Below the pieces are notes generated by a model. It worked only from the letters and a program-made list of their open reading frames with translations, had not been told where the DNA came from and ran no database searches. DNA of 64,000 nt from Candidatus Polarisedimenticolia bacterium (GTDB lineage: Bacteria; Acidobacteriota; Polarisedimenticolia; JACPZX01; DASXTC01): assembly GCA_036505635.1 (NCBI GenBank), contig DASXTC010000010.1:29107-93106 (forward strand). Direction: 5' to 3'. The position numbers and the translations under genes were made by a program. Shown here in pieces: positions 39,744 to 61,330 of the stretch. Each line of letters starts with the position of its first letter. Positions within the stretch are counted from its first letter, which is position 1.

Positions 39744-42185
<2,442 letters not shown>

Positions 42186-42192
42186 AGCGTGC

Positions 42193-44424
42193 TCATGATT
42201 CGGCGGTCTGCCCGGCGCGAGACCGGCTCAGCAACGCGCGCACCCGGGCGATGAGTCGCCGCGGTTCGACCGGCTTGAGGATGTAGTCGTCGGCGCCAAC
42301 GGCGAGACCCTCCGTCTCGCTATCGACGCTCGCTTCGCTGGTCAGCATCAGGATCCCCGCGTCGCGGGTCGTGGGATCGGACCGCAGGGCCTTCACCATC
42401 GCCATGCCGTCCATCCCCGGCATCTTGACGTCGCTCACCACGACGGCGGGCCGCTCCCTCCTCGCCATCTCGAGTCCTTGAAGCCCGTTCTCGGCGACGT
42501 GTACCTCGTAGCCCTCCAGCTCGAGGAAGTACTTCACGACCGAGGCCACCGTCGGACTGTCCTCGACGATGAGGATCTTGCTTGCCGCGCCCGAAGCTCC
42601 GGTGCGCGGGGCGGACTCCGTGGTCCTCGCACCGGCGACCGCGGCGCCGGGGACCTCTTCGGCGGGGGTGGCGCCCGCTGCGGCGCGGATCCCCTCCTGA
42701 CCCTGCGTCTCGTCGGCCGGCACCACGCGCAGGATCTCATCGAGCGTCGTGAACCCCATCGCGGCCTTCGCGATGGCGTCTTCCATCATCGTCCGCATCC
42801 CGGTCGTCCTGCCGGCCTCGCGGATCGCGTGGTCCGGTGCGCGGCGCGAGATCAGCTCCCGGACCGCTTCGGTGATCACGAGCAGCTCGTAGATCGCCAG
42901 GCGTCCTTTGTAGCCGGTCTGATGGCACTGCTCGCATCCCTCGCCCATGACCCACCGGGCATCCGCGGGCAGGTTCCCGGCCCCGCCGAACCGCTCCAGC
43001 ACCTCGGCGCTCGGCGTCTTCGGAGTGGAGCAGGCTGCGCAGGGGCGGCGCACGAGCCGCTGGGCCAGCACGCCGGAAAGTGACGAGGCCACGAGGAACG
43101 GCTCGACTCCCAGGTCCAGCAGCCGCGTGATCGTCGCGGGCGCGTCATTCGTGTGAACCGTGCTCAGCAGGAGGTGCCCGGTCTGTGACGCCTCCAGCGC
43201 GATGCCGGCGGTCTCCTGGTCCCGGATCTCTCCCACCAGGACGATGTTGGGATCCTGCCTCAAAATCGAGCGTAACCCCGCCGCGAAGGTGACGCCGGCC
43301 CGCGTGTTGATCTGGACCTGATTGATGCCCGGGAGCTGGAACTCGATGGGGTCCTCCACCGTGATGATGTTCTTCTCGGACGACTTGAGCCAGTTGAGCG
43401 ACGCGTACAGGGTGGAGGTCTTCCCGCTGCCCGTCGGGCCGGTCACCAGCAGCATCCCCTGCGGGCGCGACAGGAGCGCCTGCAGCTCGTGGAGGACCTC
43501 CGGCTGCATGCCGAGCTGGTCGATGTGGATCTGCGCCCGGCTGCTGTCGAGCAGGCGGATCACGATCTTCTCGCCGAACTGCGTGGGCAGGGTGGAGACC
43601 CTCAGATCGATCCTGCGCCCCTCGAACTTCAGGCGGCTGCGGCCGTCCTGGGGCCGGCGCCGCTCGGCGATGTCCATCCCGGAGATGACCTTGAGCCGCG
43701 AGACCGTCGAGTCCTGAAGGTCCCTCGGGATCTTGAGGACGTCGTGCAGGATCCCGTCCACGCGGTTGCGCACCTGGAGGAAGCTCTCCTGGGGCTCGAG
43801 GTGGATGTCGCTGGCGCCTCCCTTGGCCGCCTCGCTGAGGATCAGGTTGACCAGGCGCACGATCGGAGGGAGCTTCGTGTCGCGCGCCAGCCTGGCCGGA
43901 TCGAGAACCTCGTATTCGGCCTCGGGCGATACCTCCACCTCCCCGAGCGGACGGGTGCCCGTCAGCAGGTCGAAGGTCCTCTTCGTCTCCGAGGCCGCGT
44001 TGTGCAGCCGCTCCAGCAGCAGGAGGATGGAGGACTCGCTCCCGACCACCGGAACGATCTGCTTGCTCGTGCGGAACTCCAGATCCTGGATCGTAATCAA
44101 GTCGAGCGGATCGACCATCGCCAGCCGCAGCATCCTCCCCCGGACGTTGAGCGGCGCGATCAGGCGCTTGCGGCAGAACTCGACGGGGAGAAGCGACGCG
44201 ACCTCGGAGTCAAGCTCGGGTGGCTCGGGGCCCAGACGTTCCAGCTTCTCCTCGCGCGCGAGGACGGCGGCGACCCCCTCCTCGTCGGCGAGACCGAGCG
44301 TCGCGAGGATCCGGCCCAGCGACCCGCCCTCCTTCAAGTGCAGGACGCGCGCCCGCTCCAGCCCTTCGGCGTCCACGACGCCGGCGCGGAGCAGAATCTG
44401 GCCGACCATTTCCTGTCTGATCAT
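42193..44424 (-). CDS. GspE/PilB-family ATPase with MshEN-like N-terminus and C-terminal receiver domain
   Basis: [11 protein letters not shown] and [10 protein letters not shown]; [24 protein letters not shown], two CxxC; C-terminal ILIVEDS, SDVKMP, MLT, YILKP. Confidence 0.92.
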
Positions 44425-44501
44425 GTCGATGTCGCGGCCAGGGGCATGGGGGATCCATTGCGTCGAAGCGCCGGCATGAGGAATCGCTTCCGTCACCGAC
44501 G

Positions 44502-44521
44502 GCGGCAATATGCGGCAATAT
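44502..44521. repeat. Perfect tandem 10-bp direct repeat upstream of the PilB-REC gene
   Basis: gcggcaatat gcggcaatat, AT-rich against the background; contains CATATT/TATATT on the minus strand. Confidence 0.7.
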
Positions 44522-44604
44522 AAGGACGCGGGTAGGAAGCGACAACCCTTGCGGGGCGGACGTTTCAACGGACAGTGAATGATCGAAGGAGGAGCGGATC
44601 CCTC

Positions 44605-48743: not shown

Positions 48744-50711
48744 TCAGTTGACATAGCCGAGCGATCTGAGATTGCGGATCACCTCCTCGGGCAGGTCGGC
48801 GTTCGGGGTCTCGCTCAGGCGGGGCCGGCCGGCGCCGCGCTCGCGCCAGGCCCGCAGACGCGCCATCAGCTCGTCGACCACCTCGGGATGGTCGCGGTCG
48901 AGGTTCCTCATCTCGGCTGGGTCGGTCTCCAGATCGTAGAGCTCGAATCGGCTCAGGTGCTCGCGTCCCGTCCTGGCCAGCTCGAACGCCTTCTGCTTGC
49001 GGTTCATATTGAGGGCCGAGCGCAGATCCCACCGGCCGGGCGTCCGGTCAAACCCCGTGGGGTTCTCGATCAGCTTCCAGCGCCGAGTCCTGATCGCCGT
49101 GCGCAGGGCGCCGGCCACGGTCCCCGCCTCGATGTAGGCGGCAAGCTCCACGTTCCGCTCGGGCCGCTCCATTCCCATCGCGAGATCCCAGAAGCCCTGC
49201 ACCTCCATCTCGCGCTGGACCGGCAGGCCGAGGGAGGCCAGCACGGTGGGCGCCACCCCGGCGATCTCGATCACCTCCGAGACGGTCGCGCCCGCGGCAA
49301 GACGGCCGGGGAGCGCCATCATCAGCGGGACGCGCGCGTTGTCCTCGTAGCTGAACTCGCCGTGCGAGAAGAAGACCTCGTGCTCGGAGAGCGCCTCGCC
49401 GTGGTCGGCCGTGAAGATCACGAGGGTGTCGCCGGCGAGCCCCATCTCGCTCACCGACGCAAGGAGGCGGCCGAGGTGGTGATCCAGGTAGGCGATCTCG
49501 CCGTCGTAGCGGGAGATGTAATAGCCCACGTCGGTGGCTCTTTCGGGCAGACGCACCGAGGGGCGGATCGATCCGATCGAGTCGTCCCCCAGCCCCACCT
49601 TGATACCGGCATGCCTGCGCGAGAACGGGTCGTCGACGAACATCTCGGAGAAGGGGAGTGGCGGGGAGTAGGGCGCGTGCGGGTCGATATAGTGGACGTA
49701 GAGGAAGAAGGGACGCCCGGGCTGAGAATCCCGCCGGGCCTTCAGCCAGCTCAGGGCGTGGTCGGTGACCCCCCGCGCGTCGCTCAGGTTCGGGTCGGCC
49801 CAGATCTCGTCCACCGACTCGAATCCCTGGTCGAAGCCAAAGGCGGCCCCGACGTTGGAGTTGGCGACGATCGAGTGGGTCGAGAATCCACGGGCCTTGA
49901 GGATCTCCGCCAGAGTCGTCAGGTCGCCGGGCAAGGTCGTGCGGCAGGTCACGATGCCATGGGTGTAAGGCCATGCTCCCGTGAAGAGGGAAGCCACGCT
50001 GGGGCTGGTCTTCGTCTTGGCCACGATGGCGTTGGTGAAGGTGACGCCCGAGCGCGCGAAGCGCGACAGCTCCGGGCTCGTGGGGCGTTCGTATCCGTAC
50101 AGCGACAGATGATCGGCGCGCAGCGTGTCGGCGAGGATCAGGATGACGTTGCGGGGGGGGGCAGGCCCATCCGTCATCGAATTAGGATCGATCGTTGCGG
50201 GGGGAGCCGCGACGTGGGGGTGCGGATTCAGCGGGCGTGGGGGGCCCGGCACGAAGCCCGGAGCTCCCACCAGGATCATGAGGCCGAGGCAGGTGGCCGC
50301 GACACGGCCCGGGCGTCGGTGGCGGGACGCCAACGCTCCCATCGCCGCGAACAGACCAAGCCCCCAGATCAGCAGTGACACCTGCACGACGGGGGAAAAC
50401 CAGACATCGGCCATGATCGTCCTTGTCCAGGAGCGAGCGTAGACGATCCCGATCAGACCGCTCACCAGCGCGGCGGGCCACTCCGGGGCCATGTCGAGCC
50501 GGCGGCGGATCAGCTCGGCGGGCCACCCGAGGATCGCCCCGGCGACCGACCCCGCGATCGCATAGGCGGCGACGAACTTGGCGAGTGAGAGGGCCCGCGC
50601 CGCCGCGCCGGCGCCGAACGGATCGAAGATGACGGCGAGCAGGATACCCTCGACAAGCCCCGCCGCGCCGGTGACCAGGGCGACCGCCAGAGCCGTCCGG
50701 GCCAGGCTCAT
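48744..50711 (-). CDS. Membrane-anchored alkaline-phosphatase-superfamily ('sulfatase-like') enzyme with Thr nucleophile
   Basis: ATG 50711 overlaps the upstream stop; 4-5 N-terminal TM; LILADTLRADHL, KTKTSPSVASLFTG, YVHYIDPHAPY, TADHGE. Confidence 0.88.
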   Translation of the reverse strand: MSLARTALAVALVTGAAGLVEGILLAVIFDPFGAGAAARALSLAKFVAAYAIAGSVAGAILGWPAELIRRRLDMAPEWPAALVSGLIGIVYARSWTRTIMADVWFSPVVQVSLLIWGLGLFAAMGALASRHRRPGRVAATCLGLMILVGAPGFVPGPPRPLNPHPHVAAPPATIDPNSMTDGPAPPRNVILILADTLRADHLSLYGYERPTSPELSRFARSGVTFTNAIVAKTKTSPSVASLFTGAWPYTHGIVTCRTTLPGDLTTLAEILKARGFSTHSIVANSNVGAAFGFDQGFESVDEIWADPNLSDARGVTDHALSWLKARRDSQPGRPFFLYVHYIDPHAPYSPPLPFSEMFVDDPFSRRHAGIKVGLGDDSIGSIRPSVRLPERATDVGYYISRYDGEIAYLDHHLGRLLASVSEMGLAGDTLVIFTADHGEALSEHEVFFSHGEFSYEDNARVPLMMALPGRLAAGATVSEVIEIAGVAPTVLASLGLPVQREMEVQGFWDLAMGMERPERNVELAAYIEAGTVAGALRTAIRTRRWKLIENPTGFDRTPGRWDLRSALNMNRKQKAFELARTGREHLSRFELYDLETDPAEMRNLDRDHPEVVDELMARLRAWRERGAGRPRLSETPNADLPEEVIRNLRSLGYVN

Positions 50712-51685
50712 GGCGGCCCTTCCATGGCCAGCACGTTGCCCCGCCAGCGGATCATCTTGGAGTCGTCGCGATCCACGGCGCCGCCCCCCGGCCGCGCCGC
50801 TCTCTGGTACATCTTCTTGAGGTAGTTGAGCGGCTCGAAGAAGCCGCGCGTGCTCTCGAAGACGCGACGGGACTCGTCGCCCGCGCGCCTGAAGTAGGCC
50901 TCCACGAACGCCGACGCCAGCACCGCGTCCTTGCGGCAGAAGTGGTAGAGCGCGTTGATCAGCTCCTCGGCGAAAGGCTCGTACGCGAGCCTGTGCAGGT
51001 CGACCGGCACGATCCTGCCCTCCGGCGTCAGCACGAAGTTGTGCCGGTTGGCGTCGTTGTGCACGAGATTGTGGGGCGCCAGCGCGGCGATGCTCTCCCG
51101 CCACGAGTCGAACCGCTCCACGACGCGCACGGCCTCATCCTGGGAGAGCCACCCTCGCGACGCCAGCCCCCCAGCCATCCGCCGCGCTCCCGCCAGCGTG
51201 TACGATGTGAAGGAGAGGAACCGCCCACGCACCGGCGCCGATGGCCGCCCCCAGGTCACGCGCGTCACCGCGTGGTAGCTCGCCAGCGTATCGGCCACCT
51301 CGAGCGCCGCCCGGCGCGCCTCCACCGGGTCGGCGAGTCCCGCATGGCGCCGCCCCTCGATCCAGGTCTCCACCGTGATGAAGGGGACCGCGCGCCCCGG
51401 GCCGGGCAGCAGGCGCGCCCGTCGCGCCAGGTCGTGATAGATCAGCCTCGGCGCGGGGAGCCCCACCTCATCGAGGTGTCTCAGCGCCTCCGCGGTGCGG
51501 GCCGCCTGGCCGTGATGGGCGAAGGCCCGCATCAAAAGCGGCGGCATCCCCTCGGCGCGTATCAGGAACAGGGAGGATCGGGTCCCGCCCTCGGGGGGCG
51601 GCGAAACATCGAAGGGGCGCCCGGTGATCCCCATCGAAGGAAGGATCGAGCCCGAGACGTAGTCGCGCGCCGCATCGGGATTCAC
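50708..51685 (-). CDS. Aminoglycoside/choline-kinase-like (APH-fold) phosphotransferase
   Basis: GTG overlaps the PAP2 stop; GGTRSSLF, VHNDANRHN, VDLH. Confidence 0.75.
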   Translation of the reverse strand: MNPDAARDYVSGSILPSMGITGRPFDVSPPPEGGTRSSLFLIRAEGMPPLLMRAFAHHGQAARTAEALRHLDEVGLPAPRLIYHDLARRARLLPGPGRAVPFITVETWIEGRRHAGLADPVEARRAALEVADTLASYHAVTRVTWGRPSAPVRGRFLSFTSYTLAGARRMAGGLASRGWLSQDEAVRVVERFDSWRESIAALAPHNLVHNDANRHNFVLTPEGRIVPVDLHRLAYEPFAEELINALYHFCRKDAVLASAFVEAYFRRAGDESRRVFESTRGFFEPLNYLKKMYQRAARPGGGAVDRDDSKMIRWRGNVLAMEGPP

Positions 51686-52575
51686 AGTCTCACCGAGAAG
51701 AGCACGGAGGCGCCTCCCGGGATCGGGGCCACCGACCTGAGGGTCACGCGTCGTTCGGGACGCTCCGGCCTGTGGTGGGCCTTGTAGAACCCGCGGCCGA
51801 TCAGGATGCCGGCGGCGGCTCCCGCCACCACGTCGGTGAGGTAGTGCTCGTCTTCCTCGAGACGCGAGTAGCCGACGTAGGCAGCGTAGCAGTAGAAGCC
51901 CAGAAACGAGGCGACGCGCGCCCCTCGGCTCCTCACCCTTCCCGCCACGATCGCGTCGGCGTACGACATCAGGGCGAACTGCCGCGACGTGGACCCCGAG
52001 TAGAACGACTGGTGGTTCGTCCGCTTGGCCTCCTCTTCCTCCTTTTCGGCGGCGGTCAGATCGTCCCGCTCGTCGATGAATTCGATCTCGGGGCGCTGCC
52101 TGCCGACGATGTTCTTGACCAGTCCGCTCGCCCCCTTGTCGAAGAACCAGACCTCGACGAACCCCGTCGTGTCGTCGGCGATGAAGCGGCCGGAACGCTC
52201 CCGCCCCAGGTTCGAGAGGATGGCGGCTCCAAGCGACAGCGCGGCGCCTATCCGCGCCCGGTGCTCGAGGAGGAAGCTCTTCGTGGGCCCGGATGAGAGC
52301 CCTTGCCGCACCCACCGATCGATCCACGGTGGATCGGAGAAGAGGAGAGGATGGGTGGAGACGCCCACCTGGTCTTCGTACTGGGTGTCGGCATAGCTGG
52401 TCCCGAAGGCGGTGACCCAGTGAAGCAGGTGCCGCCTGAAGTACCCCTTCTCGCTCGACGAGCCCGACGAGTCCGCCGGAGAGGCCGGCGGCGTCTCCTC
52501 CTCCGCGCCGGCGCCCCGCGGATCCAGGGGGGCCATGAGGATCGTCATCAGAACGAGGGCGCGGACCGGCTTCAA
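51682..52575 (-). CDS. PAP2-family phosphatase-like exported/membrane protein
   Basis: Signal peptide (TTG 52575 inferred); KNIVGRQRP, FYSGS, SRLEEDEHYLTDV. Confidence 0.8.
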   Translation of the reverse strand: MKPVRALVLMTILMAPLDPRGAGAEEETPPASPADSSGSSSEKGYFRRHLLHWVTAFGTSYADTQYEDQVGVSTHPLLFSDPPWIDRWVRQGLSSGPTKSFLLEHRARIGAALSLGAAILSNLGRERSGRFIADDTTGFVEVWFFDKGASGLVKNIVGRQRPEIEFIDERDDLTAAEKEEEEAKRTNHQSFYSGSTSRQFALMSYADAIVAGRVRSRGARVASFLGFYCYAAYVGYSRLEEDEHYLTDVVAGAAAGILIGRGFYKAHHRPERPERRVTLRSVAPIPGGASVLFSVRL

Positions 52576-52586
52576 AGGAGACCCCG

Positions 52587-52595
52587 TGATATAAT
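52587..52595 (+). promoter_or_regulatory. Extended -10 promoter (TGnTATAAT) for the GT4-ABC-kinase-RtcB-like-GT4 operon
   Basis: tgatataat in the divergent intergenic gap. Confidence 0.6.
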
Positions 52596-52661
52596 GCGGC
52601 GTCTTACCGAGGCGCCGCGAAGTCCCGGCCGATGAATCAATTAGCGCATACTCTATCACCG

Positions 52662-53858
52662 ATGAAGCCCTTGAGGATCCTTCATACCGACTTCCATGTC
52701 GGGTGGGGCGGCCAGGCCGCCCGGGTGCTGATGCTCTCCAGGGAGCTGGCGCTCAGGGGCCACCACGTCACGATCGCAGCGCCGCCCGGAGAGCTGACCC
52801 GCCGCGCCGGCGAGATCGCGCTCGAGACTCCCGGCCTTACGGTTGCGGATCGCTTCGCCTTCAGGGCGCCAGGGCACGTCCTGTCGTTCGCGCGTGACTG
52901 CCGCCGGATGAAGGAGCTTCTGTCGCGCGGCGACTTCGACATCGTGGACGTTCACGGCTCGCAGGACACCTGGGTGACGGCGATCGTCAGGCTCCTCACG
53001 GGCCTACCGCGCCGGCTCGTGATGACGCGCCACAACACCAAACGCGTGCGCACGGGGCTTCCCAACCGGAGGCTCTACGGCCGCCTGATCGACCACCTGA
53101 TCATCGTGGATGAGAGCATCAGGCTGCAGTACGCGCCTTTGCTCGCCGGCGGCATCCTGGCGAGCGACATGATCTCGGTGGTGCCGTCGGCCTACAGGGC
53201 CGACCTGTTCCACGAAAGGGTCAGTGGCACCCGCGTGAGGCGGGAGCTTGGCATCCCCGAAGGGGATCCGGTGGTGGGTGTGGCGGGGCGCCTCGTCACC
53301 GACAAGGGGCACATCCACCTGATGAAGGCGGCCTGCGAGCTCAAGCCCTACCTCCCGGGGCTCGTGCTGGTCTTCGCGGGGACCGGCCCCAATGAAGCAC
53401 GGCTCCGCAGCCAGGCGGACGAGCTCGGTCTGTCCGCCTCGGTTCGCTTTCTGGGCTTCCGCTCCGACGTCGCCGAGGTCCAGGCCGCGTTTGACGTCGC
53501 GGTCCTGCCGTCGGTGGGATGCGACGCCTCATCGGCCGCAATCAAGGAGGCGATGGCCCTGGGAGTCCCCGTGGTCGCGTCGGACATCGGCGGCGCGCGG
53601 CACATCATCAGGGATGGAGTCACCGGGATCATCGTGAGGCCGGGCCGGCCCGAGGATCTCGTCTCGGCGCTGAGGACGCTGCTCGACGATCGCGGCAGCG
53701 CCCGCGCGATGGCGGAGCGCGCCCGCGAGGACGTGGCGCGGCGCTTCTCTCTCGACCGGCTGACCGGCCAGACTCTCGACGCCTACGCGGCGGCGCTGGC
53801 GGCCCGAAAGCGCGCGCGCCGGCACGAGGCGGCGCTGCCCGCGGGGAAGACGGCATGA
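52662..53858 (+). CDS. Family 4 glycosyltransferase
   Basis: ILHTDFHVGWGG, VHGSQD, GRLVTDKGH, FLGFRSDV, IKEAMALGVPVVASDIGG; start 52662 or 52632. Confidence 0.92.
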   Translation: MKPLRILHTDFHVGWGGQAARVLMLSRELALRGHHVTIAAPPGELTRRAGEIALETPGLTVADRFAFRAPGHVLSFARDCRRMKELLSRGDFDIVDVHGSQDTWVTAIVRLLTGLPRRLVMTRHNTKRVRTGLPNRRLYGRLIDHLIIVDESIRLQYAPLLAGGILASDMISVVPSAYRADLFHERVSGTRVRRELGIPEGDPVVGVAGRLVTDKGHIHLMKAACELKPYLPGLVLVFAGTGPNEARLRSQADELGLSASVRFLGFRSDVAEVQAAFDVAVLPSVGCDASSAAIKEAMALGVPVVASDIGGARHIIRDGVTGIIVRPGRPEDLVSALRTLLDDRGSARAMAERAREDVARRFSLDRLTGQTLDAYAAALAARKRARRHEAALPAGKTA

Positions 53859-56059
53859 AGCTCTACCGGCGGATGCTGACCTACCTGTGGCCCTACAAGC
53901 TGCGCGTCGCGCAGGTTCTCCTGCTGTCGATCCTCACGGCGGCCCTCTCGATCGGGTCGCTGGGTGCGATGAAGCCGCTCTTCGACACGCTTTTTGCGGG
54001 AGAGGAGGCCGACCTCAAGGTCGGCCTGCACGTGCTCGACTCGCGCGGGCACAAGGTCGAGGGCCTGCGGGTCCGCCCGAAGATGCCGGAAGGATGGCGC
54101 GGCCGGCTGGGGCGCGACTGGAGGATCTTCGAGGACGACACGCTCGTGCTCGAAGGGTTCCGCAAGGAGCGCACCGTCACGATCCCCATCATCCTGAAGA
54201 ACCGCCGGGACCTCGTCTACGACGGGCTGCATCTGGAGGCGGAGGGGGCCGGCAAGGGGTGGAGCGCCGCGGTCGAGATGCCGCCCGGGTTCGAGACCGC
54301 CCGTCTGATGCCGCAGGAGGAGATCACCGCCCAGCTCATCCTGACCCCTGAGACGGGGCATCACCTCTTCTCGGGCCCCTTCTGGAAGAAGCCGGGCCCC
54401 AAGAGGGTCGCCGACTGGGCCCAGGACAAGATCTTCGGCAACAAGTACAAGGCGTTGTTCGTCATCTCGGGTCTCATCCTGATCACGACGCTTCTCAAGA
54501 GCCTCTGCTTCTACAGCAAGTCGTTCTGGTCCAACTGGCTCTCCAAGCGCGCCATGACCGACCTGCGGCAGCAGCTCTTCGACGCGCTGATCAGCCAGTC
54601 GGTCAACTACTTCGACAAACGCAAGTCAGGGGTCATCATCTCCAAGTTCACCAACTCGCTCAACCAGATGCAGAAGGGGATGACCGCCATCCTCTCCGAG
54701 ATCATCACCGAGCCCCTGATGGTGGTCGGCGCGCTCACCCTGGCCTTCTCGATCAACTTCCAGCTCGCGCTCATCGGGATCCTGATCTTCCCGCTCAACT
54801 GGCTGGTGATCCTCGTGACGGGCAAGCTGATCCGGCGTTCCACCGACCGCTCGCTGCGTCAAAGGGCGAACATGGTTCAGATGCTCCAGCGCAGCATCGA
54901 CGGGATCCGGATCGTGAAGGCATTCGTCATGGAGGACCGCGCGCGCGAGGGGTTCGCCGAGGCCAACGACCAGGCCTTCCGCTACGACATGAGGGGCGCG
55001 CGGGCCAAGTCGATGCTCCAGCCAGTCGTGGAGATCTTCTCCGCCGGCTTCGTCATCATCTTCCTGCTCCTGGGGGGCGTGTCGGTGCTCCGAGGCGAGA
55101 TGACCCCTGGCGACTTCATCACGTTCTACGCCGGCATGGTGGCCTGTTACAGCCCGATCAAGAAGCTCAACAACGCCATCACCGAGATCCAGGAGAGCGT
55201 GAGCGGCGCTGCCGACGTCTTCGCCGAAGTGGACCGCGTGCCCGAGCTGGCCGACGCGCCCGACGCCGTCCCCCTGGTCCCGTTCGCCGACCGGATCGAG
55301 ATGAAGAACGTGTCGTTCCACTACGAGCATCCGGCCCCCGTGCTGCGCGACGTGAGCGTCCGGATCAACAAAGGTGAGTTCGTGGCGCTGGTGGGACCCT
55401 CCGGAGCGGGCAAGTCGACCTTCGTGAACCTGATCCCCCGCTTCTACGACGTGAAGTCGGGTTCGATCGAGATGGACGGGGTGGACATCCGGTCCGTGAC
55501 GCTCGAGTCGCTGCGGCGTCAGATCGGCTTCGTGACGCAGGAGCCGATCCTCTTCCACGACACGATCGCGGCCAACATCGCCTTCGGCGAGAGAGACGCC
55601 ACGCCGGAGCAGATCGAGGCGGCGGCCCGGACCGCCCACGCCCACGAGTTCATCAAGGATCTGACGAAGGGTTACGAGACCGTGGTGGGCGATCGCGGCG
55701 TGATGCTTTCGGGCGGCCAGAGGCAGCGCATCGCGCTGGCGCGCGCCGTGATGCGCAACCCGGCGATCCTCCTGCTCGACGAGCCGACCTCCTCGCTCGA
55801 CACCGAGAGCGAGCGCCTGATCCAGGACGCCATGGACCAGTTCGTCCACGGACGCACCACCATCGTCATCGCGCACCGGCTTTCGACGATCCTGCACGCG
55901 GACCGGATCCTCGTCATGGACCAGGGGCGTCTCGTGGAGGCCGGCACCCACCTGGAGCTGCTCGCGCACGGCGGGGTCTACCGGCGCCTCTACGAGATCC
56001 AGTTCCGCGACCAGACGGAGCCCGGCGGGATCCCGGCGGTCCGGCGCCAGCCGGCATGA
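53855..56059 (+). CDS. MsbA-like ABC exporter with a large extracytoplasmic insertion
   Basis: ATGA overlap with the GT4 gene; six-TM ABC membrane domain; GPSGAGKST, LSGGQRQR, LLDEPTS, IAHRLST. Confidence 0.92.
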   Translation: MKLYRRMLTYLWPYKLRVAQVLLLSILTAALSIGSLGAMKPLFDTLFAGEEADLKVGLHVLDSRGHKVEGLRVRPKMPEGWRGRLGRDWRIFEDDTLVLEGFRKERTVTIPIILKNRRDLVYDGLHLEAEGAGKGWSAAVEMPPGFETARLMPQEEITAQLILTPETGHHLFSGPFWKKPGPKRVADWAQDKIFGNKYKALFVISGLILITTLLKSLCFYSKSFWSNWLSKRAMTDLRQQLFDALISQSVNYFDKRKSGVIISKFTNSLNQMQKGMTAILSEIITEPLMVVGALTLAFSINFQLALIGILIFPLNWLVILVTGKLIRRSTDRSLRQRANMVQMLQRSIDGIRIVKAFVMEDRAREGFAEANDQAFRYDMRGARAKSMLQPVVEIFSAGFVIIFLLLGGVSVLRGEMTPGDFITFYAGMVACYSPIKKLNNAITEIQESVSGAADVFAEVDRVPELADAPDAVPLVPFADRIEMKNVSFHYEHPAPVLRDVSVRINKGEFVALVGPSGAGKSTFVNLIPRFYDVKSGSIEMDGVDIRSVTLESLRRQIGFVTQEPILFHDTIAANIAFGERDATPEQIEAAARTAHAHEFIKDLTKGYETVVGDRGVMLSGGQRQRIALARAVMRNPAILLLDEPTSSLDTESERLIQDAMDQFVHGRTTIVIAHRLSTILHADRILVMDQGRLVEAGTHLELLAHGGVYRRLYEIQFRDQTEPGGIPAVRRQPA

Positions 56060-57189
56060 GGGATCTCCACTTCGATCTGCATGGTCTCTCCGTCTCCATC
56101 CGCGTGGAGGACCACGACCTGCGCGATTTCATCAAGGAGCATTTCCAGACGGAGAAGGGAGCCAATCCCGAGGCCGAGCTGTCGATCAAGGCGGTGTGGC
56201 GCTGGGGCGCTCGCGCGCCGGTCGCGCCGCCGGGCCCGGGCAAGGGGCCGGCCGTCATCGAGAGGCTGGGCCGCGGGGTGTCGCTGGCCCGGGGCCGCGA
56301 CGAGGCGGGGGGCGGCGACGGGCTGCGCGCGGTCTGGACGAAGGTGCCGGACTTCCCCGAGCTGACGCTCGCCTTCGAGATGGAGGGAGGCCCAGGCGGC
56401 CGCCTGAAGGTGGAGGCCGACTGCGCCTACCAGCCGAAAGGGATGGCTCGGAGGATCGAGTACCTCAGGCCGAGCCGGGCGGACAAGAAACGCAACCGAC
56501 TCTTCTTCAAGCTGATGTACTTCATGGTCTATTACCCGATGGCCTGGACCTTCGAGCGAACGCGCGGCTGGGGTCTGCTGCACGCGTCGGCCGTGGCGAT
56601 GCCTTCGGGCCAGGCGATCATTCTCTCGGGGCTGGGGGGCGTGGGCAAGTCCACGCTGGGGCTCTCCCTACTGGCCCGGCCGGGCGTGCGCTTCCTGTCG
56701 GACAACCTGATCTTCCACGACGAGGAGAGGATCTACGCCTGCCCCGAGCCGGTGAGGCTCGACGCGGCGGCCGTGGCCGGCATGGCCGAAGGAGGGATGG
56801 AGCCGGAGCGCACGAAGCTCCCGGCATCGGCTCACCCGAAGCCGACCTACCGCGTGGTCGCGGCGAGGCGCGCCGACGCGGCGGCACCCGGGGCCATCTA
56901 CTTCCTCCGCTTCGCGCAGCGATCCGGCGTAACGCGGATCGATGCACGGAGGGCCGCCGCGATACTGGCTGCCGGCAACGACCTGGCTCGCGAGATCAAG
57001 GATTACCGCCCCACCTCGGCCCTGCTGTCGATCCTGGCGGCCGAGAGGGATCGGCCCGACCCGGCCGGGCGGTCCAATCTCGCCAGGCTGCTGGCGCCGG
57101 CTCGCTGCGCCATCTTCCGGATCGGCGAGCGGGAGAAGATCACGGACACCGCGGCCCGGCTTGCCGACGAGCTGGAAGAGGCCCGGTGA
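56056..57189 (+). CDS. HprK-related P-loop kinase
   Basis: ATGA overlap; LLHASAV, SGLGGVGKST, FLSDN. Confidence 0.75.
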   Translation: MRDLHFDLHGLSVSIRVEDHDLRDFIKEHFQTEKGANPEAELSIKAVWRWGARAPVAPPGPGKGPAVIERLGRGVSLARGRDEAGGGDGLRAVWTKVPDFPELTLAFEMEGGPGGRLKVEADCAYQPKGMARRIEYLRPSRADKKRNRLFFKLMYFMVYYPMAWTFERTRGWGLLHASAVAMPSGQAIILSGLGGVGKSTLGLSLLARPGVRFLSDNLIFHDEERIYACPEPVRLDAAAVAGMAEGGMEPERTKLPASAHPKPTYRVVAARRADAAAPGAIYFLRFAQRSGVTRIDARRAAAILAAGNDLAREIKDYRPTSALLSILAAERDRPDPAGRSNLARLLAPARCAIFRIGEREKITDTAARLADELEEAR

Positions 57190-58676
57190 GCGCGCCGCCC
57201 GGTGAAAACGCGGTGATGGCGATACCGCGGATGGTCGAGGACGCGCACCACCGGCCGGGGCTCGGTGTGCGGCTCTACGCGGGGCCCCGCTCCGCCCCGG
57301 AGCCCGCGGTCCTGCAGCGGCTCCTCTCGGTGTCGCGCCTCCCCTGGGTGGCCCGGCCCGTGGTGGCGCTGCCGGATCTCCACTGGAAGGATCGCCTCGA
57401 GACCCCCTCGAGCACCGCCATCGCCACGCGCTCGGAGATCGTGCTGTCGTTCTCCAGCCCATCGCAGAACTGTGGAATGAACCTGCTGGCCACGCCGTTC
57501 ACGGAGAAGGACCTGTCGGACGGTTTTGTCGACGGATTGATGCGGGACCTGCGCGACGGGATCCCGAGGCGACGGCGCAACGCGGCCCTGGCGGCCGACG
57601 AGGTGATCGAGTTCTGCCGGAAGGGGGCGCCGGCCGCCGCCAGGCGCTTCGGGCTCGACCCTGATCTTTGCGCCCCCATGGAGGCAGGCGGCAACACGCT
57701 GGCCGGCGAGGAGCCCTCGCGCGAGGAGCTGATGAGCGTCGTGGACCAGCGCGCCATCGAGATGGGACGCTTCTCGTTCGCCTACATCGGCGGGGGAAAC
57801 CACTTCCTCGAGCTCCAGGTGGTTTCGGAGATCTTCGACGCCGAGGCGTGCCGGGCCATGGGCCTGGAGAAGGGACAGCTCGTCGCGATGTTTCACACCG
57901 GCTCCGAGCGGCTCGGCCACGACCTGGGAAGGCTCTACTCGTGGCGGCGCAAGACCGACCCGGGCAGACGCCGCAAGCTCTTCTGGAGAAAGGTTCGGCT
58001 CCATCTGCTCCAGGAAGCCATGGGCCTGACGGCCCTGCGGCGCCGTTGGGGCTATCACTTCACCAAGCAGGACTACGTCGCGGTTCCGGCCGACTCGCCC
58101 GAGGGGCGCCGTCTCGCGCTGACGCTGAAGCTAGCCGCCAACTACGGGTACGCCAACCGGATGGCGGTGACCGGACTGATTCAGGAGGCGATGAGGCGGA
58201 CCTCAGGCCAGCACGGCCTGCGCCTCCGGATCGTCGCGGACCTCTCGCACAATACGATCATTCACGAGAAGATCGGGGACCAGCGACTCTGGGTCCACCG
58301 CCACAACGCCGCGCGCGCGGTGGGCCCGGCCGGGCTGCCGCTCGATCATCCGTACCGTTCGATCGGCCAGCCGGTGATGGTGCCCGGGACGAACCGGACA
58401 TCCTCCTACGTGGTCGTGGCTCGGGACGGGGCCGAGGCGTCGCTCAACTCGATGGACCATGGCGCCGGGCGCACCGTCCAGCGATTCGAGAATGCCGGGC
58501 TGCTCGCCCCGCGCCCCGACAGGGTCACGCGCAAGTACGATTACGCGTCCACCGGTCCGCAGATCCTCGCCCACCTGTCGGACGATGCGGTCGATGAGGT
58601 GATGTCGGTCGCGCAAGCCGGTGGGATCGCGGCGCCCGCGGCGCGACTGCGGCCCGTGGCCGTTCTGAAGGCCTGA
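57186..58676 (+). CDS. Divergent RtcB-family (RNA-ligase fold) protein
   Basis: GTGA overlap; ALPDLH, QNCGM, GGGNHFLELQ, FHTGS, ANYGYANR, SHN, WVHR, PGTNRTSSY, HGAGR, RLRPVAVLKA. Confidence 0.85.
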   Translation: MSAPPGENAVMAIPRMVEDAHHRPGLGVRLYAGPRSAPEPAVLQRLLSVSRLPWVARPVVALPDLHWKDRLETPSSTAIATRSEIVLSFSSPSQNCGMNLLATPFTEKDLSDGFVDGLMRDLRDGIPRRRRNAALAADEVIEFCRKGAPAAARRFGLDPDLCAPMEAGGNTLAGEEPSREELMSVVDQRAIEMGRFSFAYIGGGNHFLELQVVSEIFDAEACRAMGLEKGQLVAMFHTGSERLGHDLGRLYSWRRKTDPGRRRKLFWRKVRLHLLQEAMGLTALRRRWGYHFTKQDYVAVPADSPEGRRLALTLKLAANYGYANRMAVTGLIQEAMRRTSGQHGLRLRIVADLSHNTIIHEKIGDQRLWVHRHNAARAVGPAGLPLDHPYRSIGQPVMVPGTNRTSSYVVVARDGAEASLNSMDHGAGRTVQRFENAGLLAPRPDRVTRKYDYASTGPQILAHLSDDAVDEVMSVAQAGGIAAPAARLRPVAVLKA

Positions 58677-58677
58677 C

Positions 58678-59910
58678 GTGAGGGTCGCCTACGTGGCCAA
58701 CCGTTTCCCCCGATGGGGAGGCGGGTGGGTCCTCAACGAAGTGCGGGGGCTCCAGGGCGCCGGGATAGATCTCGACATCTACTCCTTCAGACGCCCGTTC
58801 GATGACGTGGCGTCGCAGCCGGGGATGCGCGAGTGGATCGGGCGCACCAGCTACGTCCCCCGCGGGTCCTCGCTCGCCTGCTGGACCGCCGCGCTTTACT
58901 GCCTCGTCCGGTCCCCGCTGGGGTTCGCCCGCGGCATCGCGACCGCGCTGCGGCTCGGAGGCCGCATGGCGCGCGGGGGGCACATCCTGGAGGTCTTCTT
59001 CCTGGCCTCCCGCATCCGGCGCTCGAAGGCGCTTCACATCCACGCTCAGCACGCCGACTATCTGGCCGACGCGGCGATGGCCGCGGCCGCCTGCCTGAAA
59101 CTTCCTTTCTCGCTCACCGGTCACGCCAACGATCTCTACACCAACCCCGGCCGTCTGGCCGAAAAGGTCTCCACGGCGCGCTTCATCGCCACCTGCACCG
59201 GGTTCAACGAGACCCATCTCAAGGGGATCCTCGGGCCGGCCGGCGCCGCGAAGGTGGCGCGCGTCTATCACGGCGTCGACCTGGCGCGCTTCGTCCCGCG
59301 CGCGGCCGGCGCCCCGGCCCCTCCCGCCGGCCGGCTCGTCACCGTCACGCGGCTCAAAGAGAAGAAGGGGTTCCCATACCTGCTCGAGGCGCTTCAGATC
59401 CTCCAGGGCCGCGGCCTCGACTTCACGCTGGAGATCTACGGTGACGGTGATCAGAGTGACGCGATCGGGGCGAGGATCCGCGAGCTGGGGCTGGAAGGAA
59501 GGGTGTCGCTCAGGGGAACCATCGATCACGACAAGATCCCCGGCGTGCTGGCTGGGGCGGGCCTCTTCGTGCTGCCGTGCGTCGTCCTGGCGAACCAGGA
59601 CCGCGACGGGATCCCCAATACGATCATCGAGGCCCTGGCATCGGGCGTCCCGGTGGTCTCCACAGCGATCTCGGGGATCCCTGAGGCCGTGCTCGACGGG
59701 CGGAGCGGGCTTCTGGCGCCGGAGCGCGACGCCCCGGCCCTCGCCGACGCGCTCGAAAGGATGATGCGGGACCACGGACTGCGAGAGCGCTGCGCGGTGG
59801 AAGGGCGGCGCGTGGCGGAATCGCACTTCAGTATCGCGGCTTCGGGGCGCGCGCTTGCCGACCTCTTCCGTCTCTCCGCGACCCCGCCTACCCGGCCGGA
59901 CGGGCGCTGA
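58678..59910 (+). CDS. Family 4 glycosyltransferase (WcaL-like)
   Basis: GTG 1 nt after the RtcB-like stop; VAYVANRFP, HIHAQH, TGHAND, RLKEKKG, RDGIPNTIIEALASG. Confidence 0.9.
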   Translation: MRVAYVANRFPRWGGGWVLNEVRGLQGAGIDLDIYSFRRPFDDVASQPGMREWIGRTSYVPRGSSLACWTAALYCLVRSPLGFARGIATALRLGGRMARGGHILEVFFLASRIRRSKALHIHAQHADYLADAAMAAAACLKLPFSLTGHANDLYTNPGRLAEKVSTARFIATCTGFNETHLKGILGPAGAAKVARVYHGVDLARFVPRAAGAPAPPAGRLVTVTRLKEKKGFPYLLEALQILQGRGLDFTLEIYGDGDQSDAIGARIRELGLEGRVSLRGTIDHDKIPGVLAGAGLFVLPCVVLANQDRDGIPNTIIEALASGVPVVSTAISGIPEAVLDGRSGLLAPERDAPALADALERMMRDHGLRERCAVEGRRVAESHFSIAASGRALADLFRLSATPPTRPDGR

Positions 59911-61330
59911 TCCCGGCGCGGGCGTCGAGGGCCGCGAGCAGCTTTTCGGCGATCCCACCGAAGCCGCCGTTGCTCATGATCAGCACGACGTCGCCGCGGC
60001 GGGCCTTCTCGGCGATCGTCGCGACGATCCCCGGAACCCCCGCCGGCTCGTGCTGCGCGGAGAGCCCCCGGCCGCGCAGGTCGGCGATCAACCTCTCGAC
60101 GCTGAAGCGCCTCCCCTCGGGCGCCCGCTCCGGGTGATCGACGGGCGCGATGACCACCTCGTCGGCCCCGTCGAACGCCTGAGCGTACTCGGCCTGGAAG
60201 ACGTCTCGCCGCGTGGTGTTGGTGCGCGGCTCGAACACGGCCCAGAGCCTCTGGCCCGGATGGCTCGTCCTGATGGCCGCGATCGTCTCGCGCACGGCAG
60301 TGGGATGATGTGCGAAGTCGTCGATGACGGTGACCCCGGCGGAGACGCCGCGCACCTCCTGGCGGCGCCGCACGCCCGAAAACGAGCCGAGCCCGCGGCG
60401 GATCTCTTCGGGAGAGAGGCCGAGCTTCAATCCGACGGCCACGGCGGCCAGCGCGTTGCGCAGGTTGTGAGCCCCCGCCGCGCCGATGCGGAAGGTCCCC
60501 AGGTCCCGCCCCGCGTCCAGCGCCCTGAAGAGCATCCCGTCCGGGCGCGTCTCGATGAGCTCGGCGCGCAGCCGCGCGCCCGGCCCCAGCCCGTATCCGA
60601 CGATCTCCCCGCGGCACGGGCGGGAGAGCAGGAGGGCGATGGCATCGTCGGCGCATACGATGAGCGCGCCACCGGCGGAGGCCGCCGGCACCAGCGCCAC
60701 GAAGCGGGAGAACGCCTCCTTGACCGCGTCGAGCGAAGGGAACATCTCGGCGTGGTCGTACTCCACGCTGGTGAGCACGGCGGTGCGCGGCATGTAGTGC
60801 AGGAACTTCGGCCCCTTGTCGAAGAACGAGGTCTCGTACTCGTCCCCCTCGATGACGAACGCCTCTCCGGCACCCAGCCTGTAGGACTGGTCGAGGTCCT
60901 TGAGGATCCCTCCCACGAGGAACGACGGGTCCCGGCCCGATTCCACGAGCATCCTGGCGATCATCGCGGTGGTGGTCGTTTTGCCGTGCGTCCCCGCGAC
61001 CACGATGGAGTGCCGGCTCGCCAGGAAGAACCGTCCGAGCGCCTGCGGCATGCTCAGGTACTCGATGCCGCTCTCGAGAAGGGCCCGCGCCTCGGGGTTG
61101 TCCCGGTTGGCGATGTTGCCCACGATCACCAGGTCGGGGCGCGGCGTGGCGGCCAGGATGTTCTCGGCGCGGTACCCTTCGAGGATCGGGATGCCACGGT
61201 CGCGCAGCATCGTGGAGATCGGCGGGTAGACGTTCTCGTCGGAGCCGCGGACATCGTGTCCCGCGTCGCGCAGGAGCCCCGCGAGGGATCCCATCCCCGT
61301 GCCGCAGATGCCGATCATGTGGATGAGCAT
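59888..61330 (-). CDS. mpl: UDP-N-acetylmuramate:L-Ala-gamma-D-Glu-meso-DAP ligase (murein peptide ligase)
   Basis: HMIGICGTGMGSLA, GSDENVYPP, AGTHGKTTT, EGDEYETSFFDK, DDFAHHPTA, FEPRTNT. Confidence 0.92.
   Translation of the reverse strand: MLIHMIGICGTGMGSLAGLLRDAGHDVRGSDENVYPPISTMLRDRGIPILEGYRAENILAATPRPDLVIVGNIANRDNPEARALLESGIEYLSMPQALGRFFLASRHSIVVAGTHGKTTTTAMIARMLVESGRDPSFLVGGILKDLDQSYRLGAGEAFVIEGDEYETSFFDKGPKFLHYMPRTAVLTSVEYDHAEMFPSLDAVKEAFSRFVALVPAASAGGALIVCADDAIALLLSRPCRGEIVGYGLGPGARLRAELIETRPDGMLFRALDAGRDLGTFRIGAAGAHNLRNALAAVAVGLKLGLSPEEIRRGLGSFSGVRRRQEVRGVSAGVTVIDDFAHHPTAVRETIAAIRTSHPGQRLWAVFEPRTNTTRRDVFQAEYAQAFDGADEVVIAPVDHPERAPEGRRFSVERLIADLRGRGLSAQHEPAGVPGIVATIAEKARRGDVVLIMSNGGFGGIAEKLLAALDARAGISARPAG

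Follow-up and report, generated by a model that had tools for sequence, protein, structure and literature searches.

To our knowledge, the only activities described for RtcB are the ligation and capping of nucleic acids. Its chemistry proceeds in three steps: a histidine is charged with a nucleoside monophosphate (His-NMP), the NMP is transferred to a phosphomonoester, and a hydroxyl attacks, releasing NMP. Residue D95 (Pyrococcus horikoshii numbering, used below unless stated otherwise) is a ligand of the second manganese ion (Mn2) that contacts the gamma-phosphate of GTP. Here, we describe an RtcB-like gene that lies in an operon of glycosyltransferase and exporter genes, directly behind a kinase gene, in a window of 64,000 nucleotides (the whole stretch of DNA analyzed, in whose numbering all positions are given; ca. 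69% G+C) from contig DASXTC010000010.1 of “Candidatus Polarisedimenticolia bacterium.”

The operon occupies positions 52662 to 59910 of the plus strand and holds five co-directional genes, in the order glycosyltransferase of family 4 (GT4) (52662 to 53858), MsbA-like ATP-binding cassette (ABC) exporter (53855 to 56059), P-loop kinase (56056 to 57189; 377 amino acids [aa]), RtcB-like protein (57186 to 58676; 496 aa), and a second GT4 (58678 to 59910). The junctions read exactly as in a first-pass annotation of the sequence, which had described five genes joined by overlaps or a single nucleotide: ATGA between GT4 and exporter and again between exporter and kinase, GTGA between kinase and RtcB-like gene, and a 1-nucleotide gap (TGA-C-GTG) before the second GT4. 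We consider it likely, with good confidence, that the kinase and the RtcB-like protein act as a pair in glycoconjugate assembly and not on RNA. The same annotation had put forward, as its core inference, a redirected RtcB chemistry in a glycan pathway, and this is strongly supported by the pairing of the two genes at 45 loci, their fusions, a clade outside canonical RtcB, the loss of the contacts to the 5′-OH strand, and a separate canonical archease-RtcB pair in the same genome.

An RtcB paralogue outside the canonical clade

The RtcB-like protein matched PF01139 with 236 bits over model positions 3 to 425 of 426, which places it in the RtcB family, and its AlphaFold 2 (AF2) model (predicted local distance difference test [pLDDT] score of 94) retrieved RtcB structures only in Foldseek (template modeling [TM] scores of 0.70 to 0.73; E value of ca. 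1e-30). Residues were mapped both on the P. horikoshii RtcB chain and on an alignment of 83 RtcB sequences, which the tree divided into 24 members of clade A, 20 of clade B, 35 canonical proteins, and 4 odd long-branch sequences. The canonical proteins, archaeal and bacterial and including the genome's own second copy, formed one clade (Shimodaira-Hasegawa-like approximate likelihood ratio test [SH-aLRT] support of 100; branch of 0.88), and both clade A, which holds the window protein (support of 100), and clade B (99) fell outside it. The first-pass annotation had suggested a homologue phylogeny and a neighborhood survey, in which nesting inside canonical RtcB without glycan genes would have spoken against its reading; the kinase-linked proteins lay outside the canonical clade, and their linkage to glycan genes was widespread.

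The second copy, whose existence had also been raised as a question, is present at C9:40037-41344 (592 bits) and is canonical. The sole archease gene of the genome (C9:39437-39853) lies directly upstream of it, and no RtcA was found in the genome assembly. Since an archease-linked canonical RtcB is available in the genome, the window copy is not needed for RNA repair. In place of the canonical genomic partners (archease, RtcA/RtcR, or PrfH), the partner at the window gene is the kinase. Neither archease nor RtcA was found around the RtcB-like gene, in agreement with that part of the earlier statement that rtcA, rtcR, archease, and Ro/TROVE genes are missing nearby; RtcR and Ro were not searched by name, and none appeared in the Pfam scan of the neighbors.

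The window protein keeps D65, C98, N202/H203/F204, H234, H329/N330, S385, H404, R408, R412, and K480. Across the 44 kinase-linked-type sequences of clades A and B, invariance extends to D65, H67, C98, N202, H203, F204, E206, H234, S237, H329, H349, R350, S385, H404, and K480. This set includes the nucleotidyl-histidine H404 and the ligands of the first manganese (Mn1), C98, H234, and H329, which correspond to H425, C96, H237, and H355 of the window protein. Such an invariant catalytic core, judged from the alignment, points to an active enzyme rather than a relic. The Mn2 set (D95/C98/H203) is incomplete in the window protein, where C98 and H203 are kept and D95 is replaced by Ser; among the high-scoring clade A rows this position was Ser in 21 of 23 and Ala in the other 2, and in clade B it was Gly, with an Asp two residues earlier. 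Clade A also showed changes of G69 to Lys, K351 to His, and G352 to Asn, and retained R408 in 15/23 and R412 in 11/23 rows.

The most marked changes concerned the strand that supplies the attacking hydroxyl. A structure of RtcB shows R190, Q194, and R238 in contact with the initial phosphates of the 5′-OH strand, and the Escherichia coli equivalent of R238 is required specifically at the sealing step (PMC8051266). Among the canonical sequences, R190 and Q194 were invariant (35/35) and R238 was Arg in nearly all (35/38 low-scoring rows). All three contacts are lost in the window protein, which has M193, S197, and E241 instead, and clade A as a whole had I/M/L/V, E/S, and G/E/D, respectively. 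In the guanine pocket, to which Y451 and the main chain at 379 to 381 also contribute, F204, E206, S385, and K480 are invariant. The guanine-stacking Y451 of the EEAPxAY segment is Asp in the window protein, inside the segment HLSDDA, and clade A showed Y451 to Asp, K452 to Glu or Asp, and M381 to Asn, Glu, or Asp, while clade B had F/K/M at these positions. Retention of E206, S385, K480, and F204 suggests a conserved purine pocket, to the extent that the alignment can tell, with Y451, K452, and M381 and the Mn2/gamma-phosphate site altered in clade A. The residue calls of the first-pass annotation, made by eye (the kept set, D95 to Ser, K351 to His, and loss of Y451), all held on the P. horikoshii chain and in the 83-sequence alignment.

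Clade A members carry an insert (residues 252 to 292 of the window protein; 41 aa, two predicted helices, net charge of +11) that is missing from canonical RtcBs and from clade B, and the window protein has a C-terminal deletion relative to canonical RtcB. The idea that the insert forms an amphipathic membrane helix found no support, as the hydrophobic moment was only 0.22 to 0.30 and clade B lacks the segment. As read from the sequences, the nucleotidyl-His/Mn1 machinery is strongly constrained, and remodeling has affected the surface that binds the polynucleotide and a portion of the base pocket.

Conserved pairing with a PEPCK/HprK-fold kinase

The partner kinase had no Pfam match, and its score against the HprK-related kinase A model (HprK_rel_A) was 35.5 bits, far below the cut-off of 200. 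Its AF2 model (pLDDT of 90) gave phosphoenolpyruvate carboxykinases of the ATP-dependent type (ATP-PEPCK) as the top 34 Foldseek matches (E value of 2.5e-8; TMq of 0.47), followed by the C-terminal domain of HprK/P (E value of 4e-5; TMq of 0.27). The family profile aligned with residues 216 to 279 of E. coli PEPCK, the catalytic core with its His, Walker A, and Asp, and 25 diverse members shared invariant H176, GGVGKST (192 to 200), and D216-N217, within the motifs LHASAV, GGVGKST, and SDNL. With its two-domain fold, Walker A, and subsequent Asp motif, and with a beta-rich N-domain of its own, the kinase is a member of the PEPCK-like P-loop superfamily that falls into none of the named families. 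It lies outside HprK/P proper, and PEPCK/HprK-fold kinase is a better name than the earlier label of HprK-like kinase, given that the top structural matches are ATP-PEPCK. When 1.84 billion representatives were searched with the profile, 206 clusters (at 50% identity) had E values of ≤1e-30.

Homologues of the RtcB-like protein, from 73% down to 38% identity, had the kinase just upstream in 7/7 neighborhoods. A wider scan, with one genome per species, gave 80 loci, which were pooled with the loci fetched before and in which the kinase was detected by hidden Markov model (HMM). A kinase orthologue was found close upstream of the RtcB-like gene, mostly directly adjoining, in 45 loci spanning Acidobacteriota, Chloroflexota, KSB1, Bacteroidota, and others. 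The HMM scores of the RtcB genes separated the copies: those linked to the kinase reached 331 to 752 bits and canonical ones 212 to 274, with a few unlinked odd or clade B sequences in between. Glycosyltransferases (GTs) were present in nearly all loci with flanks, most also encoded an ABC or Wzx exporter, and isoprenoid-lipid genes were frequent. Distances within the two families covaried (Mantel r of 0.93; 0/999 permutations). Within the phylum, the distribution of the module was patchy (6/301 sampled genomes).

Three architectures could be distinguished. Type I, in Acidobacteriota including the window, has a sulfatase and an aminoglycoside phosphotransferase (APH)-fold gene on the minus strand, followed by GT4, ABC exporter, kinase, RtcB, and GT4 or GT2. 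Type II, in Chloroflexota, starts with a radical S-adenosylmethionine (SAM)/SPASM gene, GT2, a short-chain dehydrogenase/reductase (SDR) epimerase, a further GT2, the kinase, and RtcB, and goes on after RtcB with a Wzx flippase, UbiA, a phosphoenolpyruvate-synthase/Rph-like dikinase, and a geranylgeranyl reductase or CrtI-like gene, with or without GT-C. Type III, in KSB1, Bacteroidota, Deferribacterota, and unclassified bins, reads GT4, GT4, an optional two-component system, kinase, and RtcB, with an ABC gene further on. The geranylgeranyl reductase, CrtI-like, UbiA, and HpnA-like genes of the type II loci favor a lipid-bound substrate. The type II UbiA was also considered as a decaprenyl-phosphate phosphoribosyltransferase, and this was unsupported, only generic prenyltransferase matches being found.

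The kinase also occurs in natural fusions. In-frame kinase-RtcB fusions were seen four times (L028, L051, P0211, and P0259) and kinase-GT4 fusions twice (P0192 and P0251), and there was one fusion each of GT2-kinase (P0240), UbiA-kinase (P0285), and ABC exporter-kinase (P0191). Those fusions in which the partner is an integral membrane protein favor a membrane-bound substrate.

Some loci deserve separate mention. Four long-branch RtcBs without a PEPCK/HprK-fold kinase likewise lay amid GT and flippase genes. One of them, in a Planctomycetia bin (L036:7962-11131), has a thymidylate-kinase-like P-loop gene and a gene for a membrane protein of the MprF/LPG_synthase_TM type behind it, amid GT2 and GT4 genes; here, the module takes a sister form with another kinase fold. 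Clade B RtcB-like genes with no kinase or glycosyltransferase nearby were seen in a Methylomirabilota bin (L034:3666-7952) and a Verrucomicrobiia bin (L049:3-4146), in both cases downstream of a secreted purple-acid-phosphatase-like metallophosphoesterase. Four type III loci (L030, L037, L041, and L045) encode a membrane sensor kinase-like protein (ca. 735 to 750 aa) whose gene separates the GT4 genes from the kinase-RtcB pair, ca. 2 to 6 kb upstream of RtcB, and is followed by that of a CheY-like response regulator in L030 and L039; the same region also encodes a conserved protein of 470 aa and unknown family. The complete Acidobacteriota-type operon was also present in locus L011 (DASROJ010000223.1), labeled “Patescibacteria group bacterium,” whose RtcB-like protein shares 73% identity with that of the window; this label of the bin is probably an error. 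In an Acidobacteriota bin (L004:11211-17809), the DNA downstream of the module encodes two large protein kinases of the Ser/Thr type with Tricorn/PD40 beta-propellers and an Rce1-like CAAX protease.

Proposed role in glycoconjugate assembly and its alternatives

The folds, residues, pairing, fusions, context, and clade described above are observations, and the first-pass interpretation, in which the His-NMP machinery is kept but redirected from RNA to work with the kinase in glycan or glycolipid export, is supported in part; the specific chemistry, that is, every step, the substrate, the nucleotide, and the membrane location, is what we infer. When the established three-step chemistry of RtcB is applied to a phosphomonoester made by the kinase, the module reads most simply as “phosphorylate, nucleotide-activate, join.” The flanking GT4 enzymes would build a glycosylated lipid intermediate at the cytoplasmic face of the membrane, and the kinase, using ATP, would place a phosphomonoester on one of its hydroxyls (sugar or lipid alcohol). 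His425 of the RtcB-like protein would be charged with NMP from a nucleoside triphosphate (NTP) at the retained Mn site and would pass it to the phosphate, giving R-O-P-P-N. Attack by a second hydroxyl (of a sugar, polyol, or lipid) would then yield a phosphodiester and free NMP, as in the sealing of RNA 3′-P and 5′-OH ends, and the product would be flipped by the MsbA-like ABC exporter or, in Chloroflexota, by a Wzx-type flippase. This full phosphodiester-ligase mechanism, in the assembly and export of a glycolipid or lipid-linked glycan, comes in our estimate slightly short of an even chance.

Several observations weigh against this proposal. All sequences come from metagenome bins, so that single fusions could be assembly errors, and shared descent alone also yields covariation of the kind seen between kinase and RtcB-like protein. 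Three clade B members (L033, L034, and L049) had neither kinase nor glycan neighbors within the available flanks. With Ser at D95 and His at K351, nucleotidylation of the histidine might be impaired or might use another donor, and the very basic insert of clade A could bind RNA as well as an anionic lipid or polymer. Finally, HprK-type kinases of known substrate act, as far as we know, on proteins or peptides and not on sugars.

The data would be matched about as well by a cap-only synthase of donors activated with a nucleoside diphosphate (NDP) or by a lipid-phosphate head-group ligase. In the former case, the kinase would make a sugar- or polyol-phosphate, and the RtcB-like protein would only cap it, releasing an NDP-activated donor for the neighboring GTs and forming no phosphodiester itself; we hold this to be unlikely, though it leads the alternatives. 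GalT, a covalent-His nucleotidyltransferase that works through His-UMP, provides an analogy. A capping enzyme would agree with a His-NMP core that is kept while the residues for the attacking 5′-OH strand are lost and with the SDR epimerase gene that immediately precedes the pair in type II loci, and the loci read showed no conventional nucleotidyltransferase for sugar-1-phosphates, although no systematic search for one was made. It would also agree with the finding that RtcB enzymes can stably cap DNA 3′-phosphate ends with GMP (PMC8051266). However, N202, with which canonical RtcB anchors the attacking hydroxyl, is invariant, the fusions of the kinase to ABC exporter and UbiA indicate a substrate in the membrane rather than a soluble one, and capping offers no obvious rationale for the altered Mn2/gamma-phosphate site.

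A protein or peptide substrate is improbable. Here, the kinase would phosphorylate Ser or Thr and the RtcB-like protein would nucleotidylate the product or link it to a glycan, as in protein phosphoglycosylation or a pathway resembling those of ribosomally synthesized and posttranslationally modified peptides (RiPPs). The nearest named relatives of the kinase, HprK-related kinase A and ScmC (from a radical-SAM peptide cassette), both weak matches, would fit, but the full-length fold is nearer to ATP-PEPCK, a small-molecule kinase, than to HprK/P. Radical SAM/SPASM genes do recur in type I and II loci, and an AsnB-like gene is present downstream, yet no PqqD or precursor gene was seen, and the overlap-packed operon of the window leaves no space for a precursor gene. 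The AsnB-like gene downstream of the operon was nearer to the exopolysaccharide (EPS)-type XrtA/PEP-CTERM amidotransferase (296 bits) than to lasso cyclase (119 bits; cut-off of 525). The fusion partners of the kinase were GT, ABC, and UbiA domains, not peptide-maturation domains. A lasso-peptide or other RiPP system as the principal interpretation was rejected on the type of the AsnB-like gene, the missing precursor and PqqD, the packed operon, and the absence of AsnB and radical SAM genes from many paired loci.

Less probable again is an enzyme that joins or caps RNA or DNA ends, in RNA repair under stress or in regulation, and whose gene is no more than a passenger of surface-glycan operons. 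Bacteria can carry several RtcB paralogues with different nucleic-acid activities (Myxococcus RtcB1 to RtcB3), the RtcB fold and the catalytic His/Mn1 core are kept, and nucleic acid is a possible ligand of the basic helical insert. Against it, the three canonical contacts to the 5′-OH strand are lost, translational coupling and fusion to glycan and lipid enzymes recur across phyla in three architectures, and the genome keeps its archease-RtcB pair elsewhere, with no archease, RtcA, or RNA gene near the window copy (no tRNA or Rfam RNA was found between 40 and 64 kb of the window). Moreover, the kinase would make the wrong end, a 5′-phosphate, for RtcB-type sealing. Very improbable, finally, is a noncatalytic pair in which the kinase senses a metabolite, HprK/P being a metabolite-controlled regulator, and the RtcB-like protein is a scaffold or nucleotide sensor controlling the exporter or the GTs, for the lost D95 and changed K351 that would fit this stand against at least 10 catalytic-core residues invariant across two deep clades and an invariant Walker A and catalytic Asp in the kinase.

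If the phosphodiester-ligase proposal is true, it would add a third route to phosphodiester or pyrophosphate links, beside CDP-alcohol transferases and sugar-1-phosphate transferases, in at least five bacterial phyla. The chemistry of activating a phosphate with NMP and then joining it would reach cell-envelope biosynthesis and would explain phosphate bridges made without the usual CDP- or NDP-activated donors in some uncultured Acidobacteriota, Chloroflexota, and KSB1. Two protein families would be defined, the kinase (ca. 200 clusters at 50% identity) and the two RtcB clades, and the enzymes might become a tool for ligating phosphorylated molecules other than nucleic acids. The hypothesis is directly testable with two soluble proteins.

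Neighboring genes and comparison with known systems

Both GT4 genes of the operon belong to this family by profile, the first through Glycos_transf_1 (132 bits) and Glyco_transf_4 (51 bits), in a position that is conserved in type I loci, and the last through Glyco_trans_1_4 (108 bits). The latter scored higher with EpsE (171 bits) than with WcaL (TIGR04005; 117 bits against a cut-off of 537.6), both under their cut-offs, so that generic GT4 (EpsE/WcaL-like) describes it better than the WcaL-like label of the first-pass annotation. The exporter, a half-transporter of 734 aa with ABC_membrane and ABC_tran domains, has orthologues at the equivalent position in L003 to L005 and L010 to L017, and those of L003 to L005 match its length (734 to 747 aa). 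An insert of ca. 150 aa (residues ca. 45 to 190), which presumably faces outward, separates its first and second transmembrane helices (TM1 and TM2).

On the minus strand, a divergent operon begins with a PAP2-family (lipid) phosphatase (51682 to 52659; PAP2 61 bits), which may belong to the same pathway. Behind it lies an APH-fold kinase-like gene (50708 to 51676, start approximate), a second kinase positioned as in related loci; a direct Pfam/NCBIfam scan gave no match, and its identity rests on homology (phmmer, 415 bits) to a gene of L003 annotated with PF01636 (APH). Next comes a protein of the sulfatase/alkaline-phosphatase superfamily with an N-terminal extension (48744 to 50750, start approximate; Sulfatase 181 bits), whose arylsulfatase and EptA matches were partial and below the cut-off and whose gene recurs in type I loci L004, L005, L011, L013, L016, and L017. 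The true starts of these three genes are uncertain because their maximal open reading frames overlap (50708 to 52327 for the APH-like gene). A Mur ligase at 59888 to 61330 on the minus strand was rejected as a member of the system, since it is Mpl above the equivalog cut-off, lies on the opposite strand, and is a housekeeping gene. Further away, also on the minus strand, a type II/IV secretion ATPase (42193 to 44568; T2SSE and MshEN domains) carries a fused C-terminal response-regulator receiver, and the adjoining gene (39744 to 42185) encodes a hybrid histidine kinase that combines PAS, two receiver domains, and Hpt.

Compared with the canonical RtcB ligases (P. horikoshii PH1602, Thermus thermophilus TTHA1785, E. 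coli RtcB, and human RTCB), the window protein has in common the fold, the Pfam family, the nucleotidyl-His, the Mn1 ligands, N202, F204, E206, S385, and K480. It lacks four of the canonical features tested, namely, the Mn2 Asp, the contacts to the 5′-OH strand, membership of the canonical clade, and the partner genes, and it differs in having a kinase as partner rather than archease, RtcA, or PrfH, in its glycan/lipid export context, and in its position outside the canonical clade. Full-text literature searches returned no paper that places RtcB in glycan clusters or pairs it with an HprK-like kinase, a result that does not prove absence from the literature. These proteins would possibly be the first RtcB-family enzymes to act on something other than nucleic acid, forming with the kinase an NTP-driven His-NMP ligase that links parts of lipid-linked glycans or membrane-bound glycolipids through phosphodiester or pyrophosphate, a proposal that we make tentatively.

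With HprK/P and ATP-dependent PEPCK, the kinase shares the P-loop domain fold and the H...GxxGxGK(S/T)T...(S/G)D(N/D) core, but, unlike them, it adjoins or is fused to RtcB-like, GT, ABC, and UbiA proteins and forms a separate family. The exporter resembles the glycolipid ABC flippases of the MsbA/PglK type that work with GT4 synthases in being a half-transporter with GT4 flanks and MsbA as its best model (TIGR02203, the nearest NCBIfam model); unlike MsbA, it scored below the equivalog cut-off (508.5 bits versus 602), carries the extra TM1-TM2 segment, and has a kinase-fused relative (P0191).

The closest parallels to the proposed chemistry lie in systems built from other enzymes. In the CDP-alcohol route to phospholipid head groups (CdsA/CarS and the CDP-alcohol phosphotransferases), a monoester and an NTP give R-PP-N, from which a hydroxyl forms a phosphodiester and NMP, and by analogy the kinase/RtcB-like module would follow the same logic. 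The nucleotide-activated phosphodiester transfers of teichoic acid and capsule synthesis (TagF, LicD, and Stealth) may be likened to it in the same way, and the setting, at the cytoplasmic face of the membrane with flipping afterwards, would be common to all of them. No genes for CDP-alcohol transferases, TagF, LicD, or Stealth were seen in the loci read. Unlike in all of these systems, whose folds are unrelated to it, a single soluble enzyme of RtcB fold, working through a covalent His-NMP, would carry out both activation and transfer.

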